From Lingula anatina (Eukaryota; Animalia; Brachiopoda), in NCBI GenBank assembly GCA_051362555.1, contig CM120641.1, positions 23,008,401 through 23,072,400 of the forward strand: a DNA stretch of 64,000 bases. The letters run 5' to 3'. The notes beneath the pieces are model-generated. The model saw only the letters and a program-made list of their open reading frames with translations, ran no database searches and was not told where the DNA came from. The translations under genes and the position numbers were made by a program. Positions 28,254 to 44,531 of the stretch are shown here, one piece after another; the stretch's first letter is position 1, and the number at the start of each line of letters is the position of its first letter.

Positions 28254-31200
28254 ATGGAGGCCACAGCTAAACACGATTTCAAAGCGACAGCAGAGGATGA
28301 GCTCACATTTAAAAAGGGAAACTTGCTTAAGGTACGTTTCGTCATGATTTTAAGCACAAATTTTTGTTGTAAAAGAATATGAGATTTTCTTTTACTTTTA
28401 ACTCCTATAAAATGTACCTTGCGCTAAAAGAGTCGCAACTTCCGGGCGGAAGTGCTGATTCAACTAGTAGATAAAAGTTTTTAAATCCCTGCTACAGCTA
28501 GCACTAACAGTGTATTATTGGGGGGTAAAAAATATTTTTGTTATAACTTTAGACATTGCTTTTAACTCACAATAGGTTAGACCCTAAAATAATGATAAGC
28601 CTTGAGACTGGATTCATAATTTTAAAAGAGAAAGGCGCTCATACAGCACACACTGTAAGCTTGGGGATTTCCTAAATCAACAGAAATAGGACAAGTGACC
28701 TAGCACTATTAAAATGGCGATATTCTTGAGCATGTAAGGTATATCATTACTATGGATTTATACAAATAATTGAAGACATAGAGATTAGGAAGAGCGAACA
28801 TTTCAAATGAGAAATGTGGAATATCACTATGAACAGATAAAAGACGAACATACATTTGAATAGTACTTGCTTATTTTGAAAGTCGGTGACCACCAAACAT
28901 GGATGTGGGAGATGGTATGAAAGAGTGATTTTTTGTAAGGTTTTGTTTTTCTGCCTGTTTGCAGGCCCTTGGCAATGAATAGACAAGTGGGAAGCCAAAC
29001 CACAGTAGCATTAATTAACAGATAGAATTATTTATTTACTGCACCCTTGTTATACGAAAGACATATGGTATTTCAGAATGTTTGACTCACCTGGTTTAGT
29101 TGCCCTTTTTACTGCACTTCAGTCTAAATAGATTCAGATTTTGTTCTCTTGCCCACATTTGTTTTTGTGGTATAAAAGGTTTAACAAAGTCTGCTTTGAA
29201 ATTATTTGAACTTCAGGAAATATGAATTCTTTGCTTACATCGAAATATAAACTGCGCCCATACAAAGAAACAAGTATGGTTTTGTAGAAGTATGATCAAA
29301 ATTAAAAATCAAATCAATCTTTCATATTTGGCTGCTTTATTGTATCTTTTAGAACTGTCAGGTAGGAGGGTTATTGTTAATTTTTTTCAATGTAAGTTTT
29401 TGGAATCAATGTATCATAAAAATCTTTCATCACATTGTCTGTTGTTAAATGAAGTTATTGTTTTTATTTCAGATCTTAAGCATTGAAGAAGATCATAACT
29501 GGTACAAAGCAGAGATAGATGGAAAGGAAGGCTATATTCCCAGCAATTACATTGATATGAAAGAACATAAGTAAGTATCATTGTTCATAGACAACCAAAG
29601 TACCATTGAGCTGGGAACATGCTTGAATGAATTTTATTTCAATGAATATTGGAAAAAGAACTCTCCAAGTGAAAACTTAATCTAAACAATGGTGAATAGG
29701 CAAAATTAAAAACAAGTTATTTCTGACTTTCTTCAGTTGCATCTAGGTCATAGCATTTGATGAATGATTAATCTTACCATGAGCCTATCCTACTCACAGA
29801 GGATCATCTGGTCTTCAATGTGGTTATTACCTTTTTTAAGGCTATACTAAATCTCCTTCCCATATAGGTAAAAATGGAGAGAAAGTAAAAAAAAAATCAT
29901 TTTCATGGAGACTTAACTACTCTTTCACCTGCTAGTAGTCTGTAACAAATTTATTGTCACCGACCCTGTGGGATTTGATGTGATCTATGGGAATGCATTT
30001 CTTGTCAGACACACCCTATGTATTTGTCATTAGGGAGGCTTTCATACATAGGTCCCCATCTATGTTATGTACAATGCAAGTCAAGCATGGCCTCAAACTT
30101 CAGTATTATTCACATAAATCCATTGTACTAGCTGGATCGATCCAAATCTGCAGGAGATTCTCGTTGAGTGCAATCGTTTAAATGAGCTTAAGTGTCTGAC
30201 ATACCTACTCCACTTAGCTACTCAAGGAAGAGTGTAAGACAATTTAAGACGATTACAATGAATGCATTTTAATGAGAATCCCCCCTCCCCAAGTTGGATT
30301 GATCCAGCTGTTTAAAGCTGAAAGTGCCCAACAGAGTGATTACACCCAACCCAGCAAGGATCCTCTGCTGCAGAGCCACCATTTGGGGGGAGGGGGGGGG
30401 GAGCAGGGTAATTACATAACAGCAGACAAGCTGATGGGGTGTATTCCCACAGGGTCTTAAATCTTGCATCCTGCTTTAGAAGCTTCTGATAGAGGATAAA
30501 GGCAAACCACTCAAATCAGTGATTCATTGTTATGGTCCCTGTAAAAGATTATGGTCAATTCGCTTACCCTGAAATTCAGGTTCACCATGTACCTGCTTCT
30601 TTATTTTCAAACCAGCATATGTATATTTATCAGATAAGTCAGATGCAGGCACTCATGTAATTGAAGTTTACGATGCCAGTTGCAGACTACCATCTAGTCA
30701 TGCAGATTTTCCGGTTTCTTAGAATGGCATTTGACACAGTTTATGGGCCCATTTAACGTTTTCTGATTGGTGTGGTGAACTTCAATCTAATGATGCTGAA
30801 ATTTCGATGTGGCAAGCAGACATGTATCTAAGAATTTAAAAATAGAGAGTGCTCATGTCGCTTCTGAAACTCAGGCAGTGATTGCTTTGATGAACATTTT
30901 GTTTTGTTTATTACATTGCATGGGTTTTTTATTTGTCATTGTTATATATATATATATATAAATGTATATTCCATATTTTCTTTTTGCCTTTATAATTATC
31001 GAACCGTGACATTTTATAAAACTGTAATGTTTTAACACTTATTTAGATAGGCTATGTTTAAATATAATCTGTTTGAGATTTTTCTGCCAAGCATATTATC
31101 CTTGAAAGTGTCCTTAAGGTTCAATCCCTCAAGTTAAAAGGTGGATATCAATAAAGCTAGCTTTAAATGAATTTTTTAAAAACTTTAAACTTTAAAAAGA

Positions 31201-42328: not shown

Positions 42329-44531
42329 GTTTTTCGCTACACTCCTTTTGCATGCTTGCTATGACCAACCAAACCTGTGCACTGCTGCGTTTTACTGATA
42401 TAAATAGGATGACAAGTGCCTGATGTATGCTATATTATAGCAGTCATTTAATACATAAGAAAGCTGCTTGACTGCTATTTTTCATTTGGTGTTGGAGAGA
42501 TGCATTCAGTAAAATGCTGCATGTATTTGTTTATGTACCAAGGTAGCTTAAATTTGTCACGTCTGTTTGCTGAATACCAGTTAAACACTGCTTTCTTATT
42601 ATTTTTTTAAACCAGATAAACATTGTTAGTAGGCTTGGCAATAGTCATCTATACTTGCCTTTTATACATTTCATGAATTCAATGGAAGAGCTATAATGCT
42701 GTACTAGCAAGCTTTCAGCCTAAAGATTTCATTACATCATTAGTGTATTATTTTCAATAAGACAAGCTTATAGAGTCTACTTTATAATAAGATTATTAAA
42801 AAAAACTATAGAACTAACATTGATTTTGTTATTTTTTAGACTGGGCCTACAACTTAGTATGGTCACCTGCGGGTGAGGTCACCTCTGGGCTGCATTCCAC
42901 CCAGAGCTGGGATAATTGACAAATTATCCCAACTTTGAGATGAATATAGTCAAGAGGTGACAGAAACAAAGTCTATTACTGTTTTGTTACATGATCATGA
43001 ATTTTGAAAACGATACATTGCAAGCATTAAAACATAAAGCAACAGACCCACCACAGTGCAATATCACACATGAGAATGAAAATATGAAACTAGTCGACCA
43101 GTTTCAGTACCTTGGGTTCATAAACATTTGCAAATCTGTCCATTTCATCAGTCTGTTATGCAAATGGGTCCCAGAAGATAGAATTGGAAAGTCAAGTGCT
43201 CTTCTACAGCACATGACACGAGGGAGCTAAACAAACAATGTGTAAACACGAACTGAAACAGTCCCATACGCTCTGCCTTATAAAATTAGTTTGACATGCC
43301 TCAAAAGTTTTTATGGGGCTTTAAAATCAATACTTTATTAATTCTCAAGCTATACAGTTAAAGAGAGGTATGTACATATATCTTTTGAGACATTTAAAAA
43401 TAGAACAAGAATTTTTATATTACGGACTACAAGACAGATTCATAATGGAAATGTTTCAACAAATCTCGACCTATCTAATTCTTAGATTGTTCATCAATAC
43501 TGAGTGGTAAGGGTTATTTTATTTATTTATTTTTTAATAAGTAAAAGCGTGTAAGAGAGATACTTACATTAAGTTTTGAAATGTTCAAAAGTGTGATGAG
43601 CTGACTGTCCCAAACTGATTTATATACACATTGGGAAGAAATGATAAAGTACCTCCCGATTCCCGATATAGCACAGTTGGGAGGTCAGTATAGTCTGATA
43701 TTAACCTTGCCCTCAACCAATCAGTGAGTGTCAAATTCATGATCATGTAACAACATACAACTAATGACTGGGTGAGGTCATCTTGGCGATTTATTGACCT
43801 GAAGATGGGATAATTCACCAATGCCAAAAGCAAAATATCCTAATATCTACTGCATTTTATTCTATCAATCAGACACTCATATTTTTAGCATGTTAACTAA
43901 AAAACAAACAACTGATATGCTTTCAGACTAATGAATTCAATTAAGAACCCCAAATGTCACATTAAACTATAGAGATAGTGCAGATAACATGATATGGGGT
44001 TTCATGCACAACTTGGGACTAAAAAGTTCAATTTGAAGGCTTTCATGAGAATCAATGGAAAAACTTTGTTTCTGAAGTTTTCAAACACACAAAAAGCATT
44101 ACGATTTATTTTAATTCCATGCTGGGGAGACTGACATTTTGAGCTTATTTTTTTCTGTAAAATTCTTTTTGCTTATTTCAACATTTTTTGGGAACTGTCC
44201 ATTCTCCTTCAACATTCACAATACTGTTGCCAATGTTATGCTATAAAGTGTCAAATTAACACACAGAGGACACTTTCATGGACAGTAAAAGTTTCTATCA
44301 TTTTGGAAAACTGATTCCTGTGGTGGTGCTCTTCCTTCATTTTTCTTGCAGTGGTAATTAGGCTGCATGATGCAGTATACTTATATACCTACAGATGTTA
44401 TCACATTGAAACAGCCATCCATATCATTAATAACATCTCTGTCTGATATTAAACTAGCATCTCATTTTATATGAACTAAGAAGGAATTCATTTACCTCTG
44501 GTGAAGACAATATACAAAGAATAATGTATTT

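Follow-up and report, generated by a model that had tools for sequence, protein, structure and literature searches.

Two tandem SH2 and C-terminal SH3 modules joined to one N-SH3 exon pair at the GRB2 locus of the brachiopod Lingula anatina

Introduction

In a described class of genes, a tandem duplication has multiplied several exons of the 3' part, and a common upstream part is spliced to one copy or the other. A published example, unc-60 of Caenorhabditis elegans, which encodes the ADF/cofilin proteins UNC-60A and UNC-60B, joins a shared 5' part to either tandem multi-exon module, and its distal form requires that the entire proximal module be skipped (PMC3469465). Drosophila PGRP-LC, CG42235 and Pip are likewise 3' tandem multi-exon cassette genes. 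The GRB2/drk locus of Lingula anatina, contained in the window considered here (the whole stretch of 64,000 nucleotides (nt) that was analysed, from contig CM120641.1 of assembly GCA_051362555.1), has a layout of this known kind. A tandem duplication has copied exons 3-5 and the 3' untranslated region (UTR), exon 2 is joined to both copies, both UTRs are expressed, and no hybrid joint is listed in the four runs with a complete joint list. It is highly probable that a shared exon pair for the N-terminal SH3 domain (N-SH3) is spliced to either of two tandem three-exon end modules, A (proximal) and B (distal), to give two full SH3-SH2-SH3 adaptors, with the intron-2 acceptors and the upstream poly(A) site likely deciding between them.

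As in the described class, tandem duplication of the 3' end of the gene produced the modules, and the upstream exon joins the first exon of either. An initial annotation of the window, which read the locus as one promoter serving two adaptors, stands in its RNA-supported core, although the architecture is less unusual than it implied. The unc-60 transcripts share a first exon only, whereas those of Lingula GRB2 share a whole N-SH3 domain, and the unc-60 switch is muscle-specific and acts through SUP-12 and ASD-2. Compared with the Drosophila genes, Lingula GRB2 has only two modules, and no RNA pairing common to both was found that would place it in the docking-selector subtype of PGRP-LC.

Like the GRB2, Drk and Sem-5 adaptors, the Lingula proteins have an SH3-SH2-SH3 order without a catalytic domain, derive from the same five coding exons, and keep the pocket arginine and Trp121; unlike them, they draw on two alternative modules of SH2 plus C-terminal SH3 (C-SH3) attached to one N-SH3, and module A departs from the family in the SH2 hinge. 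Alternative splicing of human GRB2 is known from Grb3-3, in which the SH2 domain is altered while Sos binding is kept and competition at Sos is possible (PMC9519967). Grb3-3 is a deletion variant unable to bind receptor tyrosine kinases (RTKs), whereas Lingula isoform A has a complete SH2 domain, predicted to fold, that is built from duplicated exons. No report of duplicated GRB2 cassettes or of this locus was found in the literature covered, which leaves out most subscription journals.

Partial tandem duplication of the GRB2 locus

The exons and duplication units of the locus are as follows.

28070-28331, plus strand: exon 1, common to both isoforms; 5' UTR from about 28070, ATG at 28254, first half of N-SH3 (coding 28254-28331); placed by read-end pile-up and translation
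29473-29570, plus strand: exon 2, common to both isoforms; remainder of N-SH3, donor joining 3A or 3B; from joints and translation
29751-37141, plus strand: duplication unit A (proximal); part of intron 2, exons 3A-5A and 3' UTR A; from blastn of A against B
33210-33347, plus strand: exon 3A; N-terminal half of SH2; from joints 29570-33210 and 33347-33709
33709-33907, plus strand: exon 4A; C-terminal half of SH2 with altered hinge, linker 36 nt longer than in 4B; from joints, translation and alignment
34533-37120, plus strand: terminal exon 5A; C-SH3, stop ending at 34730, 3' UTR of about 2.4 kb, AATAAA at 37095; from joint 33907-34533, depth and signal, with a putative end
37202-42830, plus strand: duplication unit B (distal); copy of the intron-2 part, exons 3B-5B and 3' UTR B; from blastn
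38522-38659, plus strand: exon 3B; N-terminal half of SH2; from joints 29570-38522 and 38659-39568
39568-39730, plus strand: exon 4B; C-terminal half of SH2 with consensus hinge; from translation, joint and alignment
40660-42830, plus strand: terminal exon 5B; C-SH3, stop ending at 40836, 3' UTR of about 2.0 kb, ATTAAA at 42795; from depth, with a putative end and a probable 4B-5B joint

Translation of the window gives eight coding exons in which every intron is GT-AG, with an open reading frame (ORF) through both chains (236 amino acids (aa) for isoform A, 217 aa for isoform B) and with exons 3A and 3B each 138 nt long; open frames, good splice sites and the equal exon 3 length had been noted in the initial annotation. 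Exon 4A is a 100% match to a Lingula protein annotated as 'enhancer of sevenless 2B' (P0001, XP_013398391.1), and the chain 1-2-3A-4A-5A reproduces all 236 aa of that protein exactly. Pfam recognizes two SH3 stretches and one SH2 domain in P0001, and SH2 plus SH3 in P0183, the N-SH3 coming from exons 1-2. The named relatives within the best 120 of 857 database rows are GRB2, drk/E(sev)2B, sem-5 or hypothetical proteins, the top PDB matches are human GRB2, and the five-coding-exon structure is common to Lingula and other animal loci.

When full-length rodent GRB2 is searched against the 64 kb with tblastn, exons 1 and 2 are found once and exons 3-5 twice. By blastn, homology between the copies begins about 180 nt inside intron 2 (29751-29851 against 37202-37300; 66% over 103 nt, E 1.8e-5), in a block that includes the motif noted earlier at 29778 and 37229, and it ends at about 37141 and 42830, just beyond the poly(A) signals; the copies therefore abut head to tail. 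A duplication that took exons 3-5 and the 3' UTR and left out the N-SH3 exons is thus confirmed, and the UTR pairs given in the initial annotation fall within the aligned blocks 34546-34811/40667-40919 and 35747-36125/41583-41995. The UTR blocks align at 65-70% and the intron-2 remnant at 66%, with synonymous sites at pS 0.33; likeness of about the synonymous-site level would not require special constraint. A second exon 3 or 4 was found in none of 80 other GRB2-like loci, a weak control consisting of metagenome contigs, many of them redundant and just 24 longer than 5 kb, and a metagenome scan with P0001 found no relative.

Splicing of exon 2 to both modules

Eight of the nine RNA sequencing runs listed for the species were aligned (X1-X8, 6-26% of each being read). 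The joint from exon 2 to exon 3A (29570-33210) is present in all eight, with 86 reads (9, 12, 13, 11, 1, 12, 21 and 7 in X1 to X8), as is the joint from exon 2 to exon 3B (29570-38522), with 342 reads (77, 53, 86, 25, 23, 4, 41 and 33). Both predicted junctions are thus real and neither cassette is cut off from exon 2; the splice to 3B, foreseen as a leap of about 9 kb across the proximal cassette, measures 8,951 nt. The intron at 28332-29472 is removed by splicing in four of four runs, and the downstream joints sum to 155 reads for 3A-4A, about 294 for 4A-5A and 206 for 3B-4B, two of them being displaced by one base in X7 and X8 because of a variant at an exon edge.

Read ends stack at 28070 in X1, X7 and X8, and this single 5' end, with both exon-2 joints present throughout, agrees with the proposal of one promoter and two adaptor transcripts. 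The two modules end in separate terminal exons with separate poly(A) sites: sense depth is at most 1 after 37079 (from 9-15) and after 42885, and these drops adjoin AATAAA at 37095 and ATTAAA at 42795, the cleavage positions being placed from depth and signals and not read directly. The summed depth of exons 4A and 4B lies close to that of exon 2 in three of four runs (102 vs 92, 114 vs 116 and 26 vs 24), with 39 vs 59 in X5.

Mutual exclusivity of the modules, also claimed at the outset, is borne out at the level of joints. The hybrid joints 33347-39568 and 33907-40660 are not listed in the four runs with a complete joint list, against 82 reads for 3A-4A and 178 for 4A-5A, hybrids with fewer than three reads per run being invisible; nor is a back-joint from 3B to 4A listed. 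The hybrid chains 3A-4B-5B and 3A-4A-5B are also in frame, and therefore the reading frame gives no enforcement of exclusivity. The share of isoform A is 20% when counted at the 2-3 junction, 43% at the 3-4 junction and 35-59% when judged from exon-4 depth (four runs). Two unlabelled samples of one study differ in their ratio of 2-3A to 2-3B reads (1:23 in X5 and 12:4 in X6, p 4e-6) but not significantly by the 3-4 junction (p 0.065), a hint that cassette choice may be regulated.

Dispersed intronic repeats at 31286-31671 and 40177-40390 draw many reads on both strands with loose ends, and an inverted copy of 40186-40390 lies at 26466-26672. A segment of UTR A (36644-36818) has a copy at 22957-23137. 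Low depth on the strand opposite GRB2 at 27400-27933 in X4 may stem from divergent transcription out of the GRB2 promoter region.

Divergence of the two modules

Modules A and B are identical at 118 of 158 aa, and their C-SH3 domains at 48 of 57. The comparison of nonsynonymous (dN) and synonymous (dS) divergence that the initial annotation had called for gives dN 0.155, dS 0.435 and dN/dS 0.36 (bootstrap confidence interval 0.22-0.58; 153 codons, linker excluded), and both modules look constrained. They are sisters in a quick tree of 61 rows (SH-aLRT branch support 96), no other brachiopod being among the named rows of homologues. A gene-conversion tract suspected in exon 5 was rejected: stretches lacking synonymous changes reach 17 codons at most (permutation p 0.40).

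Relative to 58 homologues, 10 derived changes fall in A and 8 in B, so a faster overall rate in A is rejected. Where columns are conserved in 90% or more, five changes lie on A (V122I, V123Q, F125H, Y134F and S139T, numbered after rodent GRB2) and none on B; the description of the distal cassette as the more canonical one thus holds at the most conserved columns but not over all columns, where the difference is not significant. By alignment, the altered residues of A are near-invariant positions of the SH2 hinge and helix B, the F125 column being Phe in 256 of 259 motif matches. R67 and R86, the phosphotyrosine-pocket arginines, and the specificity residue Trp121 are aligned and retained in both modules, and R91 and W126 of P0001 are invariant across 70 rows. 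In human GRB2, Trp121-Val123 is the hinge governing SH2 domain swapping, and mutations of V122 and V123 impair T-cell signalling (PMC9981690).

An AlphaFold2 model of isoform A from the 70-row alignment has a mean predicted local distance difference test score (pLDDT) of 90, with only the linker (161-171) and tail disordered, although an alignment-based model cannot reveal destabilisation from single residues; a single-sequence fold (pLDDT 44) is of no use. Judged from conserved residues, the Lingula isoforms would bind pY-x-N ligands and Sos and relay signals from RTKs to Ras. The balance tips, if only just, towards B as the standard RTK-to-Sos adaptor and A as a version that has been kept and still binds pY-x-N sites, though with a different affinity or dimerization, given its altered SH2 hinge and helix B and its longer linker from SH2 to C-SH3. 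Cassette switching may be regulated, and the two isoforms may differ in signalling.

The strongest competing explanation, possible though rather unlikely, is that the A and B proteins are functionally equivalent and that the duplicate is kept for dosage or for 3' UTR-dependent stability, location or translation. The pocket residues and Trp121 present in both, the similarity of the C-SH3 domains and the lack of an overall rate difference would fit equivalence, as would UTRs that differ in length and content, UTR A carrying a repeat copy; the clustering of the A changes at near-invariant hinge and helix B columns, and an A chain 19 aa longer, would not. Less likely still is that relaxed selection is letting module A decay slowly as a by-product and that B alone matters. 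The residue change F125H occurs in no other of the 259 motif matches, the A branch is the longer in the quick tree (0.30 vs 0.20), and dN/dS is pairwise, so the constraint could partly rest on B alone. Against decay, A retains an open frame and intact splice sites at dS 0.43, it accounts for 20-43% of the reads at junctions and for as much as 59% of the depth over exon 4, and protein A is identical in two haplotypes, with all five checked variant sites in its coding exons synonymous, the His codon of the F125 column included (among the RNA rows displayed, hundreds being undisplayed).

Other database entries bear on GRB2 duplication more widely. Predicted proteins P0072 (Pinctada), P0182, and P0071 and P0157 (Solemya) carry the C-terminal half of the GRB2 SH2 domain twice, and in P0182 the upstream copy is altered at the same three positions as Lingula A (V123, F125 and Y134); in Solemya there are nearby paralogues. 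GRB2 models without N-SH3 (P0003 and P0242 from Desmophyllum, P0237 from Patella) may represent the same layout mis-annotated or truncated models, and the accession of the short Desmophyllum model adjoins that of a full-length paralogue. Entries of these kinds hint that bivalves and a coral may have related duplications.

Choice between the modules

In unc-60, the fate of the transcript is set by whether the first variable intron is repressed, and hybrids are proposed to be avoided because the small internal introns are removed fast (PMC3469465). By analogy, joining of exon 2 to 3A in Lingula would be followed by removal of the short A introns (361 and 625 nt, against 3,639 nt for intron 2), definition of terminal exon 5A and cleavage near the AATAAA at 37095. 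Were intron 2 held back instead, the polymerase would pass the proximal poly(A) site, exon 2 would join 3B, and the whole of A would be discarded within a 9-kb intron. Taken jointly, the steps of this intron-2 route have a rather better than even chance of being right. A UGUGUGUG stretch lies at 33057-33064, about 150 nt before the 3A acceptor, with none in the 400 nt before 3B. The motif resembles the SUP-12 site of unc-60, and it is short enough that chance could give it.

Several observations tell against the preferred reading of the locus. The proximal poly(A) signal is the canonical hexamer AATAAA and the distal one the weaker variant ATTAAA; the proximal signal being the stronger, its bypass requires a mechanism, and none was observed. 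Intronic depth before 3A is only about 0-2.5, with no evidence of a held-back intron 2. Short reads are unable to phase three exons, and the 4B-5B joint is not among the joints listed in the eight runs, six rows being hidden in one set of four. One joint per four-run set was lost at masked repeats, and a T run (39750-39762) sits 20 nt behind the 4B donor, so the missing joint was probably lost at a masked repeat; the join itself is inferred because depth in the intron after 4B is near nil outside the repeat, exon 5B is covered and the same join appears in the RefSeq model XP_013398393.1. The share of A differs between the 2-3 and 3-4 junctions in a mismatch without explanation, the 2-3A joint being under-counted relative to later A joints, most in X1-X3; library bias is plausible, because 20 molecules start at one place in X1. 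At the protein level, overall amino-acid rates are alike (p 0.81), and five against none at conserved columns is a small count.

Selection of the cassette by competing docking-selector RNA pairings, as in PGRP-LC, is improbable. Between 29540-29760 and the 400 nt that precede 3B, the strongest duplex (-36.7 kcal/mol) is matched by only 1 of 40 shuffles, but it is loose with large loops, and in the corresponding test at 3A, 39 of 40 shuffles pair more strongly than the real sequence. No inverted repeat in the 25 longest, out of 204, links one intron-2 site to both acceptors, and PMC6191721 describes other genes with such clusters as lacking pairings.

Public annotation of the distal module

Exon 4B matches XP_013398393.1, a separate 213-aa '-like' model in which module B forms the last 158 aa. 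The existence of this model could suggest that cassette B forms a gene of its own that starts upstream of 3B, an idea refuted for the main form and very improbable in general. The first 55 aa are read from the intron at about 38360-38521, the start Met is out of frame in the window, with two further substitutions, and the intron upstream of 3B is not the same in model and window. No reads cover 37848-38231 in four of four runs, exon 3B is joined solely from exon 2 (by the 342 reads above), and depth at 38232-38615 is explained by exon 3B fed from exon 2; a promoter of its own for cassette B, one of the events that the initial annotation had named as refuting its proposal, is thus not seen. The N-terminus of XP_013398393.1 is intron-derived and without RNA support, and the annotation of the distal module is wrong. 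The 217-aa isoform B is not among the best 120 of 857 and the best 120 of 356 database rows, and RefSeq, lacking the more conventional isoform and carrying a false N-terminus, would mislead the counting and aligning of Lingula GRB2 genes.

That the duplication is an assembly or haplotype artefact, to which another near-perfect tandem repeat in the window (1-10360) might lend colour, is already refuted by RNA junctions that link exon 2 to both modules in all eight runs, and next to inconceivable given module proteins only 75% identical, introns mostly unalignable, and two RefSeq proteins whose accessions nearly adjoin and for which the longest contig listed is in both cases that of 566,329 nt.

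Other features of the window

The region at 1-10360 is an exact tandem repeat with a period of 4,712 nt (99.98%), in which a stretch of at least 937 nt is present three times. Each unit encodes a 1,253-aa ORF on the minus strand with DUF1759, aspartyl protease, integrase zinc finger and DUF5641 matches, and no reverse-transcriptase match by Pfam; the element is presumably of BEL/Pao type. The repeat looks like two long terminal repeat (LTR) elements sharing an LTR, or an assembly duplication. Two uninterrupted ORFs on the plus strand, at 16031-18238 (735 aa) and 56216-59191 (991 aa), have no Pfam match, the longer beginning with a signal-like stretch and containing several hydrophobic segments. 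On the minus strand, at 48258-53628, exons of a UBE4/Ufd2-type ubiquitin ligase (Ufd2P_core and U-box matches) converge on GRB2.

Significance

GRB2 is among the most conserved signalling adaptors, and Grb3-3, the splice variant found in the literature, works by deletion. In Lingula, by comparison, a partial duplication has yielded two expressed full-length forms from one promoter, which shows clearly how a half-copy without a promoter can persist once splicing takes it in. The duplication exists and is expressed, and its putative functional role is attractive. A tentative extension, on the unlikely side, is that A is a purposely retuned GRB2 in which the Sos-binding N-SH3 is kept while the SH2 hinge and helix B are rebuilt, that its choice by tissue or stage may act as a rheostat on RTK-Ras output, and that bivalves may have a similar device through duplication of the same SH2 half-exon with the same positions changed. 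The hinge at which isoform A varies naturally is the one that, in human GRB2, controls SH2 domain swapping, so the isoform is directly testable.

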